This document shows, piece by piece, positions 17,569-45,596 of a DNA stretch of 64,000 nucleotides. The notes beneath the pieces are model-generated. The model saw nothing but the letters and a program-made list of their open reading frames with translations. It had not been told where the DNA came from and did no database searches. The DNA lies in NCBI RefSeq assembly GCF_053078305.1, contig NZ_CP166879.1. One strand, 5' to 3'. The first letter of the stretch is position 1; the number at the start of each line of letters is the position of its first letter. The translations under genes were made by a program, and so were the position numbers.

Positions 17569-20268
17569 ATGCGTAAATATCCTTTAAGTTTACTGAAGGA
17601 TAAAAATATTGTGACTTTCTTTGATTTCTGGGGAAAAACCCGACGCGACGAGAAAGAAGGGGGTGACGACTATCACCTTCTTTGCTGGCATTCGCTGGAT
17701 GTGGCCGCGATGGGCTATTTAATGGTTAAAAGAAATTGCTTCGGGCTGGCTGATTATTTTCGTCAATTAGGGATTTCTGACAAGGAACAGGCGGCTCAAT
17801 TTTTCGCCTGGTTGTTGTGCTGGCACGATATTGGAAAATTTGCCCGCTCATTTCAGCAACTTTACCTGCACCCACAACTCAAGGTTCTGGAAGGCGCAAG
17901 AAAGAATTACGAAAAGATCTCTCATTCAACGCTGGGCTACTGGTTGTGGCATCATTATTTAAGTGAATGCGAAGAATTGCTTCCTGCCTCTTCACTCTCT
18001 ACTCGCAAACTTAAACGTGTAATAGCGATGTGGATGCCCATGACTACCGGGCATCATGGTCGGCCCCCTGACCGTATTGATGAACTGGATAATTTTCTGC
18101 CTGAAGACAAAGCTGCCGCACGAGATTTTCTCCTTGAAATCAAGTCACTGTTTCCGCTCATAGAGATTCCCACATTCTGGGATGATGACGAGGGCGTTGA
18201 ACTTTTAAAACAACTTTCCTGGTATATCTCTGCAACAGTCGTACTCGCAGACTGGACGGGTTCGTCAACGCGATTTTTTCCACGCGTCGCACAGACAATG
18301 AATATTAAAGATTACTGGCAGAAAACTTTAGTTCAGGCTCAAAACGCCTTAACCGTCTTTCCTCCAAAAGCAGAAACCGCACCTTTCACCGGAATTAATA
18401 CGCTGTTTCCTTTTATTGAGCACCCGACACCATTACAGCAAAAGGTACTGGATCTGGATATCAGCCAGCCAGGGCCACAGTTATTTATTCTGGAAGATGT
18501 GACTGGCGCAGGTAAAACAGAAGCGGCGCTTATCCTGGCGCACAGGTTGATGGCTGAGAATAAAGCTCAGGGTTTGTTTTTTGGCCTGCCAACAATGGCA
18601 ACGGCCAATGCCATGTACGATCGGCTGGTCAAAACCTGGCTTGCTTTCTTTTCGCCAGAATCCCGCCCCAGCCTGGTGCTGGCACACAGCGCCCGTACAT
18701 TAATGGAACGCTTTAATGAATCACTCTGGTCCGGTGATTTAGTCGGGTCAGAAGAACCGGATGAACAAGCGTTCAGTCAAGGATGTGCAGCCTGGTTTGC
18801 CGACAGTAACAAGAAGGCTTTACTGGCTGAAATTGGCGTCGGCACGCTGGATCAGGCGATGATGGCAGTGATGCCGTTTAAACATAATAATCTGCGGCTT
18901 CTGGGGTTGAGTAACAAAATCCTGCTGGCTGATGAGATCCACGCCTGTGACGCTTACATGTCGTACATTCTTGAAGGGTTGATTGAGCGACAGGTGCGTG
19001 GCGGAAACAGCGTCATTTTGCTTTCTGCTACGTTATCTCAACAGCAGCGCGACAAACTTGTCGCCGCCTTTGCGCGTGGCACAGAGGGCCAGCAAGAAGC
19101 TCCGTTCCTGGAAAAGGATGATTACCCCTGGCTGACGCATGTCACGAAATCCGATGTGCATTCGCACCGGGTAGCGACGCGCAAAGACGTTGAGCGTAGC
19201 GTGAGCGTGGGTTGGCTTCATAGCGAACAAGAATGTATTGCGCGTATCGAATCAGCGGTAAGTCAGGGGAAATGCATCGCCTGGATCCGGAATTCTGTCG
19301 ATGACGCTATTAAGGTTTATCGTCAGTTACTTGCCCGCGGCGTCATTCCTGCTTCCAGCCTTTCACTTTTTCATAGCCGCTTTGCTTTTAGCGATCGCCA
19401 GCGAATTGAAACGGAAACGCTGGCACGCTTTGGTAAAAATTGTAGTTTAAAAAGATCATCTCAAGTCATTGTTTGTACACAAGTAATTGAGCAAAGTGTG
19501 GATATTGACCTGGACGAAATGATCTCCGACCTGGCCCCCATTGATTTGCTGATCCAGCGAGCGGGGCGATTACAACGGCATATTCGTGATATTAATGGTC
19601 AGTTAAAACGTGATGGAAAAGACGAGCGTTCCCCTCCTGAATTGCTGATTCTGGCCCCCGTCTGGGACGACTCTCCGGGTGACGAATGGTTTGGTAGTGC
19701 GATGCGTAACAGCGCATATGTCTACCCCGATCATGGGCGAATCTGGCTGACGCAGCGAGTATTGCGTGAGCAAGGCGCTATTCAGATGCCACACGCAGCC
19801 CGGCTTCTTATTGAATCCGTCTACGGTGAGGACGTGGTAATGCCGGAAGGATTTGCCCGCAGCGAGCAGGAGCAAGTGGGCAAATATTACTGCGATCGCG
19901 CAATGGCTAAAAAGTTTATGCTGAACTTCAGGCCCGGCTATGCCGCCAATATCAACGATTACCTCCCGGAAAAGCTGTCGACACGTCTGGCTGAAGAGTC
20001 TGTTTCCCTGTGGCTGGCTACCTGTATTGACGGTGTGGTGAAGCCTTATGCCAGCGGTGCTCACGCATGGGAAATGAGCGTTGCCAGAGTGCGTCGAAGC
20101 TGGTGGAAAAAACATCGGGATGAATTTTCTTTACTGGAAGGGGAAGCGTTCAGGCAGTGGTGCATTGAACAACGGCAAGATCCGGAGATGGCAAACGTGA
20201 TTTTAGTCACCGATGACGAAAGCTGCGGGTATTCGGCTACGGAAGGATTGATTGGCAAGGTTGATTGA
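17569..20268 (+). CDS. cas3: Cas3 helicase-nuclease (type I-E)
   Basis: 899-aa ORF; N-terminal HD domain region, DExH helicase motifs (GAGKTEAAL, DEIH). Confidence 0.95.
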   Translation: MRKYPLSLLKDKNIVTFFDFWGKTRRDEKEGGDDYHLLCWHSLDVAAMGYLMVKRNCFGLADYFRQLGISDKEQAAQFFAWLLCWHDIGKFARSFQQLYLHPQLKVLEGARKNYEKISHSTLGYWLWHHYLSECEELLPASSLSTRKLKRVIAMWMPMTTGHHGRPPDRIDELDNFLPEDKAAARDFLLEIKSLFPLIEIPTFWDDDEGVELLKQLSWYISATVVLADWTGSSTRFFPRVAQTMNIKDYWQKTLVQAQNALTVFPPKAETAPFTGINTLFPFIEHPTPLQQKVLDLDISQPGPQLFILEDVTGAGKTEAALILAHRLMAENKAQGLFFGLPTMATANAMYDRLVKTWLAFFSPESRPSLVLAHSARTLMERFNESLWSGDLVGSEEPDEQAFSQGCAAWFADSNKKALLAEIGVGTLDQAMMAVMPFKHNNLRLLGLSNKILLADEIHACDAYMSYILEGLIERQVRGGNSVILLSATLSQQQRDKLVAAFARGTEGQQEAPFLEKDDYPWLTHVTKSDVHSHRVATRKDVERSVSVGWLHSEQECIARIESAVSQGKCIAWIRNSVDDAIKVYRQLLARGVIPASSLSLFHSRFAFSDRQRIETETLARFGKNCSLKRSSQVIVCTQVIEQSVDIDLDEMISDLAPIDLLIQRAGRLQRHIRDINGQLKRDGKDERSPPELLILAPVWDDSPGDEWFGSAMRNSAYVYPDHGRIWLTQRVLREQGAIQMPHAARLLIESVYGEDVVMPEGFARSEQEQVGKYYCDRAMAKKFMLNFRPGYAANINDYLPEKLSTRLAEESVSLWLATCIDGVVKPYASGAHAWEMSVARVRRSWWKKHRDEFSLLEGEAFRQWCIEQRQDPEMANVILVTDDESCGYSATEGLIGKVD

Positions 20269-20297
20269 GATGCCCTGGCGTCGGATGACGCCAGGGC

Positions 20298-20321
20298 TTA
20301 TCCCCGCTGACGCGGGGAACA
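20298..20321 (-). repeat. Solitary CRISPR repeat-like sequence, inverted relative to the arrays
   Basis: TTATCCCCGCTGACGCGGGGAACA matches the reverse complement of the array repeat (TTATCCCCGCTGGCGCGGGGAACA) at 23 of 24 positions; preceded by an 11-bp-stem hairpin at 20272-20297. Confidence 0.7.
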
Positions 20322-20712
20322 GGAACCAATTTTTGTATCTCACTAACTTGGTTAATCCCTAGAATCAGGGAATGGATTTATTTTATCAATGCTATTGTGA
20401 TTATGATAGATGGGTAATTGCTATGAGTTAATGAGAAACAAAAATTTTAAATAATGTCCGGATCCGGAGTTGAGTCACACCGTTACAAGGCGTATTTTCG
20501 TGACCGGTGAAAAGCTGCGGTGAAGAGGACTACGATGTTGTCGATTTTTTTGCTTCAACTTGTGCTAAGTCTGCTTTCAAAACGACAAACTAAGTTCGAT
20601 TTTCGTATCACATTCAACGTCTTTTCTTTTATCCGACTCAGATTAAGTCTCCAACTAAATCTGAAAATATGGTGATGGACAACCGACCAGGGATGGTCTT
20701 TTCTACGAGAGG

Positions 20713-22281
20713 ATGCGTATGAACTCGTTTTCACTTCTGACAACCCCGTGGTTGCCCGTTCGTTTTAAAGACGGAACGACAGGCAAACTGGCGCCAGTCG
20801 ATCTGGCTGATGAAAATGTTGTCGATATCGCTGCGCCACGAGCAGATCTCCAGGGAGCAGCATGGCAGTTTTTACTGGGGCTACTACAAACCAGTTTCGC
20901 GCCCAAAAATCATGGTCGTTGGGATGATATCTGGCAAGACGGACTGGAAGCCGAAAAGCTACGGGAAGCATTGCTGTCTTTAGAACATGCTTTCCAGTTT
21001 GGGCCAGATTCCCCTTCATTTATGCAGGATTTCGAGGCGCTCACGGGAGATAAAGTTCAGGTTGCTTCATTACTGCCTGAGATTCCCGGCGCTCAAACAA
21101 CGAAGTTTAATAAAGACCACTTTATTAAGCGTGGCGTGACTGAACACGTATGCCCTCATTGTTCCGCGTTAGCTCTGTTCTCCCTACAGTTAAATGCACC
21201 GTCAGGCGGCAAAGGCTACCGAACCGGTTTACGCGGCGGTGGGCCGATGACGACTCTGATTGAATTGCAGGAGTATCAGGGCAATCAACAAGCCCCCTTG
21301 TGGCGCAAACTGTGGCTCAACGTGATGCCGCAGGATGAAGCCGACTTACCGCTACCCAAAAAATTTGACGATCTGGTTTTCCCCTGGCTTGGCCCGACGC
21401 GTACCAGCGAACTGGCCGGTGCGGTGGTAACCGATGATCAGGTCAATAAACTCCAGGCGTACTGGGGAATGCCGCGGCGTATTCGTATTGATTTTAATAC
21501 CACGACAGTCGGCAACTGCGATATTTGCGGTGAGCAGGACGACGCGCTTCTGAGCCTGATGACGACCAAAAATTACGGTGCGAATTATGCCATGTGGCAG
21601 CATCCATTAACGCCTTACCGTGTACCACTTAAAGAGGGTGGCGAGTTTTACTCAGTTAAACCACAACCAGGCGGTTTAATTTGGCGCGACTGGTTAGGCC
21701 TTATCGAAACGGGTAAGTCAGAAAACAATACGGAACTTCCCGCTCTGGTGGTGAAACTCTTTAATGCCAGCAGTCTCAAGCAGGCAAAAGTAGGCCTATG
21801 GGGATTTGGCTATGATTTCGACAACATGAAAGCCCGCTGTTGGTACGAACACCGTTTCCCGCTGCTGCTCAATAAAAAAGAAGGCCAGATACCGAAACTG
21901 CGGCTGGCTGCGCAAACGGCTTCACGCATTCTAAGTCTGTTACGGAGTGCATTGAAAGAAGCATGGTTCTCCGATCCAAAAGGTGCACGGGGTGATTTCA
22001 GTTTTGTGGATATCGACTTCTGGAACAAAACTCAGCATCGCTTCCTGAGGTTAGTGCGCCAAATTGAAGAAGGTCAGGATGCGGATGAATTACTCAGCAA
22101 ATGGAATAAGGAGATTTGGTTATTCTCGCGTCAGGATTTTGACGAGCGTGTATTCACCAATCCTTATGAGCCCGTTGATTTAAAACGCGTCATGACCGCG
22201 CGCAAAAAATATTTTACAACATCGGCGGAGAAGCAAAATGCTAAAGCCGCCAGGGAGAAAAAGCAGGAGGCTGCTGAATGA
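20713..22281 (+). CDS. casA: Cascade large subunit Cse1 (CasA)
   Basis: 522-aa ORF; start could be the ATG at 20719; first gene after the AT-rich intergenic region. Confidence 0.9.
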   Translation: MRMNSFSLLTTPWLPVRFKDGTTGKLAPVDLADENVVDIAAPRADLQGAAWQFLLGLLQTSFAPKNHGRWDDIWQDGLEAEKLREALLSLEHAFQFGPDSPSFMQDFEALTGDKVQVASLLPEIPGAQTTKFNKDHFIKRGVTEHVCPHCSALALFSLQLNAPSGGKGYRTGLRGGGPMTTLIELQEYQGNQQAPLWRKLWLNVMPQDEADLPLPKKFDDLVFPWLGPTRTSELAGAVVTDDQVNKLQAYWGMPRRIRIDFNTTTVGNCDICGEQDDALLSLMTTKNYGANYAMWQHPLTPYRVPLKEGGEFYSVKPQPGGLIWRDWLGLIETGKSENNTELPALVVKLFNASSLKQAKVGLWGFGYDFDNMKARCWYEHRFPLLLNKKEGQIPKLRLAAQTASRILSLLRSALKEAWFSDPKGARGDFSFVDIDFWNKTQHRFLRLVRQIEEGQDADELLSKWNKEIWLFSRQDFDERVFTNPYEPVDLKRVMTARKKYFTTSAEKQNAKAAREKKQEAAE

Positions 22282-22814
22282 GTATTGTAAAAGAGGAGCA
22301 CAAAGCCACGCTGCGTAAATGGCACGAAGAGTTGCAGGCTAAACGCGGCAATCGTGCCAGTCTGCGGCGTAGCACAACGGTTAATGATGTTTGCTTGTCA
22401 GAAGGGTTTCGTTCTCTGCTGATGCAGACCCACACTTTGTGGAAAATTGAAGCACAAGAGTGGCGTTTTACCGCACTGGCGCTGGTCGCCGCAGTTAGCG
22501 CCAATGTAAAAGCCATTGATGAACGGCAGCCTTTTGCCGCGCAGCTGGCGGCGGTAATGTCGGAGGGGCGTTTTACTCGCCTGTCGGCAGTAAAAACGCC
22601 GGATGATTTACTGCGTCAGTTACGTCGCGCGGTCAAATTATTAAACGGTTCCGTCAATCTTATCTCTTTGGCAGAAGATATTTTCCGCTGGTGCCAGGAG
22701 AGCGACGACCTGCTCAATCATCACCGCCGCCAGCAGCGGCCAACCGAATTTATCCGTATCCGCTGGGCACTGGAATATTACCAGGCTGGCGACGCCGATA
22801 ACGAACAAAATTAA
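22278..22814 (+). CDS. casB: Cascade small subunit Cse2 (CasB)
   Basis: 178-aa ORF overlapping the casA stop. Confidence 0.9.
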   Translation: MSIVKEEHKATLRKWHEELQAKRGNRASLRRSTTVNDVCLSEGFRSLLMQTHTLWKIEAQEWRFTALALVAAVSANVKAIDERQPFAAQLAAVMSEGRFTRLSAVKTPDDLLRQLRRAVKLLNGSVNLISLAEDIFRWCQESDDLLNHHRRQQRPTEFIRIRWALEYYQAGDADNEQN

Positions 22815-22828
22815 TAAAGGACTATCTC

Positions 22829-23884
22829 ATGACAACATTTATTCAGCTTCATTTGTTAACCGCTTACCCTGCTGCCAACCTTAACCGTGATGATACTGGT
22901 GCGCCAAAAACTGTGGTACTGGGTGGTGCAACGCGTCTGCGCGTTTCCTCACAAAGTCTGAAACGTGCGTGGCGCACTTCTGCACTTTTTGAACAGGCAC
23001 TGGCGGGCCATATTGGTATTCGCAGTGGGCGAATTGCGCGTGAGGCGGCAACTATCCTGATTGAGAAAGGAATCGAAGAGAAAAAAGCCATCGAATGGGC
23101 GGCAAAAATTGCGGATTATCTTGGGAAAGCTAAAAACGACAAAAAACCAAAAGATCCGCTCACTAACGCCGAAACTGAACAATTAGTTCATATCAGCCCG
23201 GCAGAATTTGACGCCGTAAAAGCGCTGGCCCATCAACTGGCAGAAGAAAAGCGCGCGCCAAAAGAGGAAGATCTCGCGTTGTTACGTAAAGACCGTATAG
23301 CGGTAGATATCGCTATGTTTGGTCGTATGCTGGCGAATAAACCTGAGTTTAATGTTGAAGCCGCCTGCCAGGTCGCGCATGCGTTTGGTGTCAGTGAAAC
23401 GATTGTCGAAGATGATTTTTTCACCGCCGTTGATGATTTGCGCCAGGCCTCTGAAGATGCCGGTGCCGGGCATCTCGGAGAAACCGGATTCGGTTCAGCA
23501 CTTTTCTACACCTATATCTGCATTGATAAAGATCTGCTGGTAGAAAACCTCGGCGGTGACGAAGCGTTAGCTAATCAGACCATACGCGCTTTTACGGAAG
23601 CCGCGCTTAAAGTTTCCCCAACCGGTAAACAAAATAGCTTTGCCAGCCGTGCCTACGCCTCCTGGGCGCTGGCGGAAAAAGGCACTGATCAACCGCGTTC
23701 TCTGGCGGCGGCTTTCTATGAACCCATTAATGGTACCCGTCAGTTAGATGTGGCGGTGCAGCGTATTACAACGCTTCGCGAAAACATGAATACGGTCTAC
23801 GAACAGAAGACTGAATGCGCAAGTTTTGACGTGATGAACAAACAGGGAAGCATGAAGGACGTACTGGACTTTATCTGCGCGTAA
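22829..23884 (+). CDS. casC: Cascade backbone Cas7e (CasC)
   Basis: 351-aa ORF; N-terminal MTTFIQLHLLTAYPAANLNRDDTGAPK. Confidence 0.9.
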   Translation: MTTFIQLHLLTAYPAANLNRDDTGAPKTVVLGGATRLRVSSQSLKRAWRTSALFEQALAGHIGIRSGRIAREAATILIEKGIEEKKAIEWAAKIADYLGKAKNDKKPKDPLTNAETEQLVHISPAEFDAVKALAHQLAEEKRAPKEEDLALLRKDRIAVDIAMFGRMLANKPEFNVEAACQVAHAFGVSETIVEDDFFTAVDDLRQASEDAGAGHLGETGFGSALFYTYICIDKDLLVENLGGDEALANQTIRAFTEAALKVSPTGKQNSFASRAYASWALAEKGTDQPRSLAAAFYEPINGTRQLDVAVQRITTLRENMNTVYEQKTECASFDVMNKQGSMKDVLDFICA

Positions 23885-23894
23885 GGGGCGGCTT

Positions 23895-24641
23895 ATGAGC
23901 CAATATCTGATTTTTCAGCTTCATGGGCCAATGGCATCCTGGGGCGTCGATGCCCCCGGCGAAGTGCGTCATACCCATGAACTGCCTTCGCGCTCAGCAT
24001 TGCTGGGTCTGCTGGCTGCCGGGGTAGGGATTCGGCGTGATGATACCGAACGCTTAAACGCGTTTAATCGCCACTATTCACTGGTGGTTTGCGCCAGCCG
24101 TAACCCGCGCTGGGCACGGGATTATCACACGATCCAGATGCCAAAAGAGGTGCGCAAAGCGCGTTATTTCAGCCGTCGCGAAGAGTTGAGCGACTCTGAT
24201 CTTCTGAGCGCGATTATCTCCCGGCGCGACTACTACACCGACGCCTGGTGGATGGTGGCGGTGGCAACAACAGCCGATGCGCCTTACAGCCTCGAACAGT
24301 TGCAGGGCGGTTTACGCCATCCAGTTTTTCCTCTTTATCTGGGGCGAAAAAGTCATCCGCTGGCATTACCACTTGCGCCGTTACTGCTCGAAGGCAACGC
24401 GTCTGATGTTTTACGTAACGCATACCAACAGTATCAGGATCATTTCCACGACCTGAAAGTCTCACTCCCGAAACTTCAGGATGAATGCTGGTGGGAAGGG
24501 GAGCACGACGGCCTGGTCGTGAGCAAAATATTACGCCGCCGGGATGTTCCTTTAAATCGCCAGCAGTGGCTGTTTGGGGAACGCACCGTCAATCAGGGGC
24601 CGTGGCTCAGCAAGGAGGAACCATGTACCTCTCAAGAATAA
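23895..24641 (+). CDS. casD: Cascade Cas5e (CasD)
   Basis: 248-aa ORF at the expected position in the operon. Confidence 0.9.
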   Translation: MSQYLIFQLHGPMASWGVDAPGEVRHTHELPSRSALLGLLAAGVGIRRDDTERLNAFNRHYSLVVCASRNPRWARDYHTIQMPKEVRKARYFSRREELSDSDLLSAIISRRDYYTDAWWMVAVATTADAPYSLEQLQGGLRHPVFPLYLGRKSHPLALPLAPLLLEGNASDVLRNAYQQYQDHFHDLKVSLPKLQDECWWEGEHDGLVVSKILRRRDVPLNRQQWLFGERTVNQGPWLSKEEPCTSQE

Positions 24642-25269
24642 CCTTACATACCGCTCAGCTTTTGCCTGCGCAGTTGCTGCATCTGGTGGATCGCGGTGAA
24701 TATGTGATGCATCAGTGGCTGTGGGATCTCTTCCCTGGCGGCAAAGAAAGGCAATTTCTTTATCGTCGGGAGGAACTTCAGGGTGCGTTTCGCTTTTTTG
24801 TCCTCTCGCAGGAACGCCCGGCGGAAAGTGAAACTTTCACTATCGAATGCCGGTCATTTGCTCCGGAGCTGCGTACCGGACAATCCCTTTGTTTCAACCT
24901 GCGGGCGAATCCCACAATTTGTAAAGCGGGCAAGCGCCACGATCTGCTGATGGAGGCGAAACGGCAGGTGAGGGGACAGGCGGAAGGGCGTGATGTCTGG
25001 TTGCATCAACAACAGGCGGCGCTGGACTGGCTGGCAGCGCAGGGGGAGAGAAGCGGTTTTACACTGCTGGATACCTCGGTTGATGCCTACCGACAACAGC
25101 AACTGCGGCGGGAAAACTCCCGGCAACTGATCCAGTTCAGTAGCGTGGATTATACGGGGATGCTTACGGTCACCGATCCCGGGTTATTTCTGCAACGTCT
25201 CAGTCAGGGGTATGGCAAAAGCCGCGCGTTCGGCTGTGGTCTGATGCTGATCAAACCCGGAGCAGAGGT

Positions 25270-25273
<4 letters not shown>
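24623..25273 (+). CDS. casE: Cas6e (CasE) pre-crRNA endoribonuclease
   Basis: 216 aa from ATG 24623 (MYLSRITLHTAQLL...); the track ORF starts upstream at 24485; overlaps casD end. Confidence 0.9.
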
Positions 25274-26483
<1,210 letters not shown>

Positions 26484-26580
26484 GTTATGTGTTCTTTAAA
26501 AATAAGGAAATGTTTGAATTTAGTTGGTAGATTGTTGATGTGGAATAAATTTGTTTAAAAACAGATATGTATGCTTAGTG
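26484..26580 (+). promoter_or_regulatory. CRISPR leader (AT-rich) between cas2 and the first repeat
   Basis: 97-bp AT-rich stretch ending ...AACAGATATGTATGCTTAGT directly before the first repeat. Confidence 0.8.
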
Positions 26581-27579
26581 TGTTCCCCGCGCCAGCGGGG
26601 ATAAACCGGGGGGGCAATAATATGTGCGGCGGATCACCAGGTGTTCCCCGCGCCAGCGGGGATAAACCGTCGGAAAAATGGCTGGCCTCAACGGTGAAAA
26701 CGTGTTCCCCGCGCCAGCGGGGATAAACCGCCAGGGTGAAACTTTTCGCTGACGTAAATAAAGTGTTCCCCGCGCCAGCGGGGATAAACCGACAATCACA
26801 TATACGACGCGAGACGGAGATCGGTGTTCCCCGCGCCAGCGGGGATAAACCGTGATGGGCGAATACAAGCGCTGGCGCAACGAGGTGTTCCCCGCGCCAG
26901 CGGGGATAAACCCGGCATTCTTAACCGGCGCAACAAGGGGGGCGCGTGTTCCCCGCGCCAGCGGGGATAAACCGGTTAACTCCAGGTGGCGCGGCAGTGT
27001 TCAGAAGTGTTCCCCGCGCCAGCGGGGATAAACCGTGCTCTCATTTGTGTCGGCATCACTCGCGTCGGTGTTCCCCGCGCCAGCGGGGATAAACCGTCTG
27101 CCGCGAGCTGGTCTACGCCTACGCCATGGTGTTCCCCGCGCCAGCGGGGATAAACCGACATATGCCACAACCAGGCGAAGAAAAGTGTTCCCCGCGCCAG
27201 CGGGGATAAACCGCCCGTCACCGACGCGCAGTGGCGCTACCGTGAGTGTTCCCCGCGCCAGCGGGGATAAACCGGTCGCTGGGTTATTTTGTGTTGTGGG
27301 GCGATCGTGTTCCCCGCGCCAGCGGGGATAAACCGCTCATATTCGGATTGATCGTGTGTTTCGGTTTGTGTTCCCCGCGCCAGCGGGGATAAACCTGCGT
27401 ATATCTGTTGATGCGCACGGCGTGGCGGGTGTTCCCCGCGCCAGCGGGGATAAACCGAATGATTTAATACCAGACGCAGAGTGCCACACGTGTTCCCCGC
27501 GCCAGCGGGGATAAACCGGGCGCACTGGATGCGATGATGGATATCACTTAGAATTCCCCGCCCCTGCGGTAGAACACCC
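26581..27579 (+). CRISPR. cas-proximal CRISPR array (type I-E): 16 intact repeats plus 1 degenerate terminal repeat, 16 spacers
   Basis: Repeat GTGTTCCCCGCGCCAGCGGGGATAAACCG starting at 26581, 26642, 26702, 26763, 26824, 26885, 26946, 27007, 27068, 27129, 27185, 27246, 27307, 27368, 27429, 27490; degenerate GAATTCCCCGCCCCTGCGGTAGAACACCC at 27551-27579. Confidence 0.97.
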
Positions 27580-36464: not shown

Positions 36465-37604
36465 ATGAGCGCGGGAAGCCCAAAATTCACCGTTCGCCGC
36501 ATTGCGGCTTTGTCACTGGTTTCGCTATGGCTGGCAGGCTGTTCTGACACTTCAAATCCACCGGCACCGGTCAGCTCCGTTAATGGCAATGCGCCTGCAA
36601 ATACCAATTCTGGTATGTTGATTACGCCGCCGCCGAAAATGGGGACGACGTCTACAGCGCAGCAACCGCAAATTCAGCCGGTACAGCAGCCACAAATTCA
36701 GGCCACTCAACAACCGCAAATCCAGCCAGTGCAGCCAGTAGCTCAGCAGCCGGTACAGATGGAAAACGGACGCATCGTCTATAACCGTCAGTATGGGAAC
36801 ATTCCGAAAGGCAGTTATAGCGGCAGTACCTATACCGTGAAAAAAGGCGACACGCTTTTCTATATCGCCTGGATTACTGGCAACGATTTCCGTGACCTTG
36901 CTCAGCGCAACAATATTCAGGCACCATACGCGCTGAACGTCGGTCAGACCTTACAGGTGGGGAATGCTTCCGGTACGCCAATCACTGGCGGAAATGCCAT
37001 TACCCAGGCCGACGCAGCAGAGCAAGGAGTTGTGATCAAGCCTGCACAAAATTCCACCGTTGCTGTTGCGTCGCAACCGACAATTACGTATTCTGATTCT
37101 TCGGGTGAACAGAGTGCTAACAAAATGTTGCCGAACAACAAGCCAACTGCGACCACGGTCACAGCGCCTGTAACGGTACCAACAGCAAGCACAACCGAGC
37201 CGACTGTCAGCAGTACATCAACCAGTACGCCTATCTCCACCTGGCGCTGGCCGACTGAGGGCAAAGTGATCGAAACCTTTGGCGCTTCTGAGGGGGGCAA
37301 CAAGGGGATTGATATCGCAGGCAGCAAAGGACAGGCAATTATCGCGACCGCAGATGGCCGCGTTGTTTATGCCGGTAACGCGCTGCGCGGCTACGGTAAT
37401 CTGATTATCATCAAACATAATGATGATTACCTGAGTGCCTACGCCCATAACGACACAATGCTGGTCCGGGAACAACAAGAAGTGAAGGCGGGGCAAAAAA
37501 TAGCAACCATGGGTAGCACCGGAACCAGTTCAACACGCTTGCATTTTGAAATTCGTTACAAGGGGAAATCCGTAAACCCGCTGCGTTATTTGCCGCAGCG
37601 ATAA
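36465..37604 (+). CDS. nlpD: Murein hydrolase activator lipoprotein NlpD (LysM + M23 peptidase domains)
   Basis: 379-aa ORF; lipobox LAGCS; Q/P-rich repeat linker; M23-like C-terminus. Confidence 0.95.
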
Positions 37605-45251: not shown

Positions 45252-45596
45252 ATGTCCGGCAAGCGTATCTCTCGTGAAAAACTGACGATTAAAAAAATGA
45301 TCGATCTTTATCAAGCGAAATGCCCGCAGGCGTCAGCGGAGCCGGAGCATTACGACGCGCTGTTTGCCTACGCGCAAAAGCGGCTGGATAAATGTGTGTT
45401 CGGCGAAGAGAAACCAGCCTGTAAGCAGTGTCCGGTGCACTGTTACCAGCCTGCAAAGCGTGAAGAGATGAAACAGATTATGCGTTGGGCCGGGCCGAGA
45501 ATGCTGTGGCGTCATCCGATCTTAACCGTGCGTCATCTCATCGATGACAAGCGTCCGGTGCCGGAGTTGCCAGAAAAATATCGTCCAAAGAAATAA
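45252..45596 (+). CDS. ygbA: Cys-rich small protein YgbA
   Basis: 114-aa ORF; position between mutS and fhlA. Confidence 0.8.
   Translation: MSGKRISREKLTIKKMIDLYQAKCPQASAEPEHYDALFAYAQKRLDKCVFGEEKPACKQCPVHCYQPAKREEMKQIMRWAGPRMLWRHPILTVRHLIDDKRPVPELPEKYRPKK

Follow-up and report, generated by a model that had tools for sequence, protein, structure and literature searches.

The cas3–casA region of the type I-E locus

The stretch of DNA analysed here, called the window, comprises 64,000 nt of contig NZ_CP166879.1 (GCF_053078305.1), and all coordinates refer to it unless another sequence is named. It carries a complete type I-E CRISPR locus, with cas3, casA, the other cas genes up to position 26483 and a CRISPR array (Table 1). 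The cas3 counterpart in Escherichia coli JX21CE8, whose sequence is 99.9% identical to the window, is annotated in RefSeq as CRISPR-associated helicase/endonuclease Cas3. The subject of this work is the spacer region between the end of cas3 at 20268 and the start of casA at 20719, which contains a small antisense element, designated creR in the following, beside the cas3 stop codon.

The perfect stem of an 11-bp hairpin begins at the fourth base after this stop codon, leaving 3 nt between the two. The last four nucleotides of the hairpin (20294–20297) are shared with a copy of the array repeat, termed ΨR2. A first-pass annotation, made from the letters alone, had reported both the hairpin and a match to the reverse complement of the repeat at 23 of 24 positions (20298–20321). 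The coordinates and sequence of the hairpin were confirmed, and so was the repeat match, whose likeness extends to 29 nt. No match of this grade to the array repeat is expected by chance (100 shuffles), and the repeat matches in the window consist of the array repeats, one degenerate repeat at 1092–1117 and ΨR2, the last being the only + strand match.

Table 1. Coordinates of the features of the type I-E locus discussed in the text.
Feature	Position	Strand	Sequence and remarks
cas3 open reading frame (ORF)	17569–20268	+	Stop codon TGA at 20266–20268; convergent with the mini-array; from the ORF list
GC-rich hairpin, 11 bp	20272–20297	-	GCCCTGGCGTC-GGAT-GACGCCAGGGC; loop GGAT on the plus strand, AUCC in minus-strand RNA
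ΨR2, well-preserved repeat copy	20294–20322	-	CTGTTCCCCGCGTCAGCGGGGATAAGCCC; 25/29 against GTGTTCCCCGCGCCAGCGGGGATAAACCG; 23/24 in the core 20298–20321
ΨS, 26-nt spacer-like guide	20323–20348	-	AGTTAGTGAGATACAAAAATTGGTTC; between ΨR1 and ΨR2
ΨR1, degenerate repeat	~20349–20375	-	CCATTCCCTGATTCTAGGGATTAACCA; 5-6-bp hairpin and 5´-handle-like ATTAACCA
Candidate creR promoter (a), extended -10	20380–20388	-	TGATAAAAT; read from alignments
Candidate creR promoter (b)	-35 at 20431–20426; -10 at 20408–20403	-	TTAACT, 17 nt, TATCAT; promoter scan
Predicted Cascade target	20423–20451	+	Protospacer-adjacent motif (PAM) ATG at 20423–20425; protospacer AGTTAATGAGAAACAAAAATT, matched part 20426–20446
Weak candidate casA promoter	-35 at 20470–20475; -10 at 20493–20498	+	TTGAGT, 17 nt, TATTTT; read from sequence
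casA(cse1)-casB-casC-casD-casE-cas1-cas2	20719–26483	+	ORFs; RefSeq casA start; presumed regulated operon
CRISPR array, 16 repeats	26580–27515	+	Repeat GTGTTCCCCGCGCCAGCGGGGATAAACCG

A two-repeat mini-array antisense to cas3

The repeat copy beside cas3 had been described as solitary, but a second, degenerate repeat (ΨR1) lies 26 nt upstream of it on the minus strand. We put the probability at about 0.8 that this copy belongs, as the better preserved of two repeats, to a regulatory mini-CRISPR of the CreR type, antisense to both cas3 and casA. On the minus strand, the element is ordered as TGATAAAAT AAAT CCATTCCCTGATTCTAGGG ATTAACCA / AGTTAGTGAGATACAAAAATTGGTTC / CTGTTCCCCGCGTCAGCGGGG ATAAGCCC-hairpin, the slashes marking the limits of the guide (ΨS).

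The ΨR1 hairpin is followed by GGGATTAACCA, where the repeat has GGGATAAACCG, and the handle ATTAACCA agrees with ATAAACCG of the repeat at six of eight positions. Judged by its sequence, ΨR1 is a degenerate repeat that keeps the portion that becomes the 8-nt 5´ handle, and ΨR2 would provide the Cas6e hairpin and the 21-nt 3´ handle (20322–20302). Among seven aligned relatives, the ΨR1 handle reads ATTAACCA, ATAAACCA or ATAGACCA, the ΨR1 hairpin is 88% paired, with two pairs altered on both sides, and the ΨR2 hairpin is 100% paired. The minus-strand RNA is predicted to fold into three successive hairpins, corresponding to ΨR1, ΨR2 and the terminal hairpin, at -55.7 kcal/mol (z = -6.3).

Two repeats around one spacer, placed intergenically inside the cas locus between cas3 and casA, are the arrangement of CreR and of other regulatory mini-arrays. 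A canonical array does not describe the element, which has two repeat copies, one of them degenerate, and a spacer that matches its own locus and co-varies with it. A solitary repeat unit or RNA anti-CRISPR does not describe it either, given the ΨR1 partner and the chromosomal context. An Rfam scan of 20100–20800 (E-value ≤1) returned no family, no copies or mimics of the mini-array and its target were found in 50,697 phage records, and a plasmid search for copies of the mini-array gave only two 31-nt matches at the level of the repeat.

The hairpin sequence after ΨR2 (TGGCGTCATCCG...) was tried as a second guide and rejected, having no PAM-flanked target. A 13-nt exact match (TGGCGTCATCCGA) to this sequence is present at 45507–45519 (about 0.002 expected by chance in the window); it has CTG, which is not a PAM, at the PAM position, lies apparently in coding sequence, and is treated as chance.

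A PAM-flanked target of the guide in the same spacer region

The whole window was scanned on both strands for matches to ΨS from guide position 1, with every sixth position ignored. In Cascade, each sixth base of the guide is flipped out and is not read. The sole match in the 64 kb, besides ΨS itself, was 20426–20446, the runner-up being a 9-nt match without a PAM. Guide positions 1–21 match this site except at 6 and 12, and positions 22–26 are mismatched. The target is located 78 bp from ΨS, on the strand opposite creR, and is preceded by ATG, which together with AAG belongs to the interference-proficient PAMs of E. coli type I-E. None of 500 shuffled guides reached 21 in the spacer region. 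Moreover, the start of the guide, set independently by the ΨR1 handle, corresponds to the first base after the target PAM. This PAM-proximal match near the cas promoter region (ATG-AGTTAATGAGAAACAAAAATT) is a further property of the CreR family.

Position statistics were obtained from 15 guide–target pairs. Positions 6 and 12 were mismatched in 22/30 cases, about the random expectation; among the remaining positions of the first 12, mismatches amounted to 5/150 cases, every one at position 9, which lies immediately beyond the I-E seed.

Covariation of guide and target

Guide and target have been maintained together in the family of the element, with compensatory changes in E. coli 135/BEC1, N3 and MS 69-1 and in the metagenomic loci L088 and L089 (L numbers denote individual loci of the comparison). 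E. coli 135/BEC1 is 96% identical to the window and has A to T at position 15 in both ΨS and target; in addition, one stem pair of ΨR2 is changed from C–G to U–A in E. coli 135. E. coli N3 carries a 32-nt ΨS (AGTTAGTGATACACGTAT...) and the target AAG-AGTTATTGATATACGTAA, with mismatches only at positions 6, 12 and 18, and metagenomic L090 is of the N3 type. In E. coli MS 69-1, the ΨS GCAGTAAGAGGTAG... corresponds to the target AAG-GCAGTAAGAGGAAG (AAG-GCAGTAAGAGG.AG), located on the same strand as creR. L088 shows 15 consecutive guide–target matches with an ATG PAM, and L089 has T to C at position 3 in both partners.

In L089 (contig ERZ1026852.342), two tandem ATG-flanked targets, AGCTAATGTCAA and AGCTAATGACAA, are found after cas3. 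Within the first, the creR strand carries a perfect -35 TTGACA; within the second, the casA strand carries ATGACA, followed after 17 nt by AATAAT. It looks as if one guide covers two divergent promoters.

ΨR2 is near-invariant across E. coli, Klebsiella and metagenomic relatives, and it has differences of its own from the array repeat (loop GTCA, tail AAGCCC), which indicates that it is old and not a recent copy. The ΨR2 of L088 has a U·G wobble in minus-strand RNA, which would be C·A if the RNA came from the plus strand. On this comparative evidence, the mini-array is real and under selection.

Mini-arrays in other genera and in K-12

Type I-E loci were retrieved with the window CasC as query, taking one genome per species, and the cas3–casA spacer of each of the 80 loci was searched with its own repeat. 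The most diverged enterobacterial loci retrieved, such as that of Pluralibacter, have a CasC about 59% identical to that of the window. Repeat-like copies were present in 11 loci besides the window, and all the copies (16/16) were antisense to cas3. Eight mini-arrays elsewhere have their own guide and an AAG- or ATG-flanked target in the same spacer region: those of K. spallanzanii, Pluralibacter, Pectobacterium, Tenebrionibacter, Halopseudomonas, a related gammaproteobacterial metagenome-assembled genome, L045 and L082. The target lies 45–110 bp upstream of ΨR1 in every locus, with a variable distance to casA. The strand of the target varies among loci, which fits the recognition of dsDNA and not an RNA stem.

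The mini-array of Pluralibacter gergoviae (L015, 7313–7451) is antisense and has three repeats, the middle one being perfect (29/29). Its first guide, 21 nt long, starts with TAG like Salmonella CreR and has an AAG-flanked 13-nt target; the second spacer is target-less.

E. coli K-12 MG1655 (L084, NC_000913.3 2883900–2884900) also contains an antisense mini-array in its cas3–casA spacer, at about 575–690 of this segment, with a target at 454–472. Its ΨR1 (ACCTTCCCTACTTAAGTAGGGATAAACCG) has a perfect 5´ handle ATAAACCG, and the guide TTATTGGTCTTATTAT... matches the target AAG-TTATTCGTTTTATTAT except at positions 6 and 9. Shmakov et al. probably had this mini-array as their E. coli example. An antisense RNA of 150–200 nt, 'anti-Pcas', has been described from this region, and the K-12 mini-array is located where this unexplained RNA arises.

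These data bear on the possibility that the covariation reflects a structure in cis, in which the complement of ΨS (20323–20348) and the supposed target (20426–20446) would pair at long range as a stem, within an antisense transcript or one that reads through from cas3. The two segments are indeed inverted repeats, 78–110 nt apart, in the window, E. coli 135, N3, L088 and L089. However, they are direct repeats, unable to pair, in K. spallanzanii, MS 69-1, Pluralibacter, Pectobacterium, Tenebrionibacter, Halopseudomonas and K-12, and a stem predicts neither the adjoining AAG or ATG in every case nor mismatches at every sixth position counted from the repeat handle. We regard a cis-acting stem as highly improbable. 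An RNA stem or gene conversion between the two segments is disfavoured because either would homogenise positions 6 and 12, need no PAM and fail where guide and target are direct repeats.

The length of the guide was compared in the window, L009, L015, L030, L045, L046, L049, L080, L082, L085, L088, L089 and L092, with boundaries defined to within about ±1 nt. It is about 20–21 nt in Pluralibacter, Pectobacterium, Halopseudomonas and L049, 26–27 nt in the window, L088 and L089, and 31–33 nt in N3, K. spallanzanii, MS 69-1, L045, L080 and L082. These clusters are 6 nt apart, which is the Cas7 repeat length, and the 26 nt of the window equal 32 minus 6. Shortened spacers are still assembled into Cascade, with fewer Cas7 subunits, and a viral mini-array with a 24-nt guide has been published.

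Distribution in E. coli and deletion of the element

A cas3/casA junction of the window type was found in 2450 of 5426 complete E. coli genomes. The hairpin and ΨR2 are kept in 16 of these, in four versions, and about 2434/2450 (>99%) have no element and no obvious replacement. Strains with the long form include JX21CE8, ECNB21-M121 and 23CRST027. In the short-form strains examined (L001/L003), the spacer region is 97 bp long, with some 340 bp (about 20298–20637) and 12 nt of the hairpin absent; the deletion takes the mini-array, the target and the whole promoter region. As the short form still has the right-hand junction and the two hairpin ends (GCCTG...CGACAGGGCT), and as relatives share the long form, it is considered a deletion derivative. 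For the same reasons (hairpin ends kept in the short form, long form in Klebsiella and metagenomic relatives), an insertion as the origin of the long spacer region was rejected. The loss of the promoter region raises the question of where casA transcription originates in those strains.

An alignment of cas3–cse1 regions across E. coli and Salmonella had been suggested as a check on conservation. In E. coli, the element is kept in the 16 genomes mentioned above; the sole Salmonella locus retrieved, that of S. diarizonae (L010), has no cas3–casA spacer, so the CreR of S. enterica ATCC 51960 has no direct alignment to the window. In E. coli MS 69-1 (L092), cas3 is annotated as frameshifted, and the adjoining mini-array and target are intact.

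The first-pass annotation had considered that the repeat might be a neutral relic of an ancestral array or rearrangement, and had named lack of conservation in related loci, together with lack of a minus-strand transcript, as the observation that would speak against a function. Such a decayed leftover, with no present function, could account for the absence of the element from almost all E. coli with window-type cas, for the degeneration of ΨR1, for the mini-arrays without detectable target in other genera and for the frameshifted cas3 in MS 69-1. Nevertheless, it is contradicted by the compensatory changes, which are unexpected for a relic: within one family, joint changes in ΨS and its PAM-flanked target are seen in at least five variants, and ΨR2 shows compensatory changes of its own. 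The concentration of mismatches at positions 6, 12 and 18, the near-invariance of ΨR2 and the single orientation of all the copies also argue against it, and a relic refreshed by recent gene conversion would have to contend with unconstrained sixth positions and same-strand targets elsewhere. A neutral relic therefore has very little chance of being correct. The lack of conservation holds in terms of presence, but the element is conserved with covariation where it is present, so the absence is read as loss and not as neutrality.

Promoters, terminal hairpin and the region after the target

Two candidate promoters face creR. The extended -10 of candidate (a), TGATAAAAT, is kept as TGATATAAA in N3 and as TGTTAAACT in K. 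spallanzanii. Candidate (b) is the sole sigma-70-like site in a scan of 20200–20760, and the first 6 nt of the target are the reverse complement of its -35. No plus-strand promoter exceeded the scan threshold in the same interval; the plus-strand candidates, at 8/12, are weak, and only one of them has its spacing preserved in N3. This casA candidate, below the threshold, has its -35 24 bp downstream of the matched target, and its N3 counterpart reads TTGAGA, 17 nt, TACTTT, in an otherwise diverged region.

The 11-bp stem of the terminal hairpin is kept in seven relatives, with four pairs changed on both sides, and its loop is mostly GGAT. In MS 69-1, GAGTC/GACTC replaces GCGTC/GACGC, a fifth compensatory change. 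In L088, several pairs of the hairpin are G·U in the creR sense and would be A·C in that of cas3; UUUUC comes after the stem, again in the creR sense. Owing to this, the hairpin is assigned primarily to the 3´ end of creR, as a terminator or exonuclease block; secondarily, it may possibly stop the convergent cas3 transcript.

In a rival explanation, the role of the two adjacent hairpins would simply be to stop cas3 transcription, or transcription in both directions, and their likeness to the repeat would be incidental. The position of the element 3 nt past the cas3 stop codon, the compensatory changes in the first hairpin and the survival of a hairpin remnant in short-form strains are in accordance with it. 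Both hairpins, that of ΨR2 and the adjoining one, can also be folded on either strand, with the predicted z = -6.3 on the minus and -5.1 on the plus strand, where the fold reaches -48 kcal/mol over 106 nt. However, what comes after the stem in the window is TTATCCCC on the plus strand and ATCTCAAT on the minus strand, there is no T-run after either hairpin on either strand, and a terminator scan did not call the hairpin 20272–20297. In L088, moreover, the U·G pair of ΨR2 would be a C·A mismatch in plus-strand RNA, and it is in the creR sense that a U-run comes after the hairpin. A terminator would leave unexplained ΨR1, ΨS, the PAM-flanked target and their covariation. A terminator as the whole explanation is thus very unlikely, although termination at the first hairpin is compatible with the CreR-type mini-array and forms part of it.

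Immediately after the target, a block of about 30 bp (20447–20480) is common to the window and N3, whose spacer regions have otherwise diverged: A[AC/AT]AATGTCCGGA..C.GAGTTGAG. A palindrome, TCCGGATCCGGA, and the beginning of an 18-codon ORF fall within it, and it may serve as a promoter, as a site for a regulator or as a small gene. Further downstream, a terminator-like hairpin GACCAGGGATGGTC, followed by TTTTCT, is located at 20685–20698, with 20 nt between it and the casA start codon. Short-form strains keep this hairpin too, and it could be an attenuator or a structure of the 5´ untranslated region.

The conserved block after the target has to be considered in relation to addiction modules of the CreTA type, in which the RNA would be a CreA antitoxin silencing a small toxin, CreT, at the target, guarding the cas genes against loss or anti-CRISPRs. 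CreTA was the form in which this class was discovered first, and according to the authors of CreR, coupled toxins could still come to light. The ATG at 20455 within the conserved block opens the 18-codon ORF, likewise of 18 codons in N3. Against a toxin gene, this ATG is not preceded by a Shine–Dalgarno sequence, the ORF is not conserved in L088/L089, and past seven codons the window and N3 are unrelated. The joint loss of guide, target and block in the ~340-bp deletion would be expected to be tolerable whichever kind of module was present, and thus cannot tell the two apart. An addiction module at this site appears improbable.

Proposed mechanism of cas self-repression

Under the proposed mechanism, a minus-strand promoter just upstream of ΨR1 would transcribe creR from about 20375 to 20270, with the end at the hairpin beside the cas3 stop codon. 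Cleavage by Cas6e after the ΨR1 and ΨR2 hairpins would then release an RNA of about 55 nt (20356–20302) resembling a CRISPR RNA (crRNA), made of the 8-nt 5´ handle AUUAACCA, the 26-nt guide and the 21-nt 3´ handle. This crRNA-like RNA would be loaded into Cascade, which would read the ATG PAM and form an R-loop over the matched part of the target; as positions 6 and 12 are not read, the pairing would effectively span 21 nt. Since the last five guide positions are unpaired, Cascade would bind without licensing cleavage by Cas3. The bound complex would overlap the creR -35 of candidate (b), would sit 24 bp upstream of the candidate casA -35 and, placed on a divergent promoter region, would repress casABCDE and probably creR too. 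Cascade and Cas6e would presumably come from the casA–cas2 operon itself, and, owing to competition for Cas proteins, repression should relax when normal crRNAs or anti-CRISPRs are abundant. The sequences themselves show the layout of the element, the unique PAM-flanked match, the covariation, the conserved structures and the constant antisense orientation; we infer transcription, processing, Cascade binding, repression and the promoter affected from the tested Salmonella CreR.

Two suggestions of the first-pass annotation can be placed in this scheme. A Cas6e or Cascade binding site on an antisense transcript was essentially right, as ΨR2 would be the 3´ handle, but incomplete, since a two-repeat mini-array encoding a crRNA-like RNA is predicted. 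An effect on the casA promoter is probable as well, in trans, through Cascade guided to 20423–20446, and not through read-through from cas3 into casA.

Several observations weigh against the proposal of a functional CreR-type element. ΨR1 is strongly degenerate, with a 5-bp stem of differing sequence, which makes Cas6e cleavage on the 5´ side uncertain. The target was not found in metagenomic L091, and four mini-array spacers of the genus survey (L015b, L028, L057 and L020) have no detectable target. The position statistics are partly circular, because the targets were picked for a contiguous match ignoring sixth positions; the perfect seed is in part a product of this selection, while the freedom at positions 6 and 12 is not so explained. 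With 21/26 positions paired, some recruitment of Cas3 is possible, and spacers longer than 20 nt can support interference. The target is about 270–290 bp upstream of casA, compared with about 140 bp in the published Salmonella case, and the sole consensus promoter faces creR, so that the primary regulated promoter could be that of creR itself. Finally, the element is dispensable, as more than 99% of E. coli with window-type cas are without it.

As a more tentative extension, short-guide RNAs may build 'short' Cascades with four or five Cas7 subunits, able to bind without locking or recruiting Cas3, and a single complex on a bidirectional promoter may silence both casABCDE and creR, resulting in a self-limiting homeostat instead of a plain repressor. 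We consider this possible, but doubtful as it stands.

Relationship with known systems

By its sequence features, the element is of the CreR type, a kind described in 2023 (Shmakov et al.; Liu et al.). The type I-E CreR of S. enterica ATCC 51960 repressed PcasA 8.6-fold through E. coli Cascade, and a mutation of the guide abolished this effect (10.1101/2023.03.10.532045); the repression was relieved by excess crRNA or by AcrIE8. Repression of a cas promoter by a mini-array, dependent on Cascade and independent of Cas3, has examples in Salmonella and P. aeruginosa. Distinct CreR variants of Salmonella, as well as phage mimics of them, have been published.

Salmonella CreR (Liu, Li et al. 2023) shares with the window a degenerate mini-CRISPR in the cas3–casA spacer of an enterobacterial I-E locus, a ΨR1 that keeps mainly the 5´ handle, a ΨR2 that keeps mainly the 3´ handle hairpin, a partial, PAM-proximal identity of ΨS to a PAM-flanked site upstream of casA and the lack of an obvious coupled toxin. 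It differs in its guide, since the Salmonella ΨS starts with TAG and has 15 consecutive matches next to an AAG PAM, whereas that of the window (AGTTAG...) has 21 effective matches next to ATG. The distance to casA differs too, as stated above, and the window protospacer is on the strand opposite creR, unlike that of Salmonella. Repression has been measured for Salmonella CreR and is proposed by analogy for the window.

About 19% of bacterial I-E loci are reported to contain mini-arrays, located between cas3 and cas8e and transcribed opposite to cas3, with the target next to the cas8e promoter and mismatches at sixth positions (Shmakov et al. 2023, PMC10120712). These mini-arrays, including an E. 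coli locus (Fig. 4B of that work), resemble the window element in position, antisense orientation, PAM-flanked target a short way upstream of the cas8e/casA promoter, sixth-position mismatches and sporadic distribution. In contrast, their upstream repeat is well preserved and the downstream one degraded, the reverse of the window, where ΨR2 is preserved and ΨR1 degraded. Furthermore, the window represents another cas variant of E. coli, with a guide unrelated to that of the E. coli locus of Shmakov et al.

CreA of the CreTA modules (type I-B in Haloarcula, and others) is likewise crRNA-like: it derives from a degenerate array of two repeats and, by partial complementarity, makes Cascade a transcriptional repressor. 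However, CreA silences a toxin gene, and no conserved toxin candidate was found in the window among the ORFs compared after the target. RNA anti-CRISPRs (Racr), viral Cracr arrays and solitary repeat units are also repeat-like sequences outside arrays that engage Cas proteins, but all of these are borne by phages and plasmids and act against the host, whereas the window element is chromosomal, lies in the cas locus and has a second repeat and a local target.

Other repeats of the window

A second CRISPR array occupies positions 1–530 and runs off the left edge of the window; the loop of its repeats is CTAG in the first six and CCAG in the last three. It is followed by about 500 bp of AT-rich sequence and by a two-repeat degenerate array (1031–1120), a layout that we take to resemble the known CRISPR2.2/2.3 arrangement. 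Tandem Repeats Finder also detected a 24-nt tandem repeat of 2.6 copies (CAACCGCAAATTCAGGCCACTACAA) at 36663–36725.

Biological significance

The regulation of the E. coli type I-E system is mostly discussed in terms of H-NS, LeuO and CRP. If the repression inferred here is true, a minority of E. coli (16/5426 complete genomes) retain an RNA-guided circuit of self-repression for this system. A comparison of long-form and short-form strains could show the share of CreR in the silence of the E. coli I-E system. For annotation, an inverted 'solitary' repeat beside cas3 should prompt the search for a degenerate partner and for a local PAM-flanked target.

What the present analysis adds to the published elements is the almost total disappearance of the circuit from E. 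coli, a natural series of guide–target covariation and a stepping of guide length by 6 nt. The co-varying guides and targets, in which sixth positions vary freely and mismatches at position 9 are tolerated, constitute an evolutionary read-out of the seed rules of Cascade.

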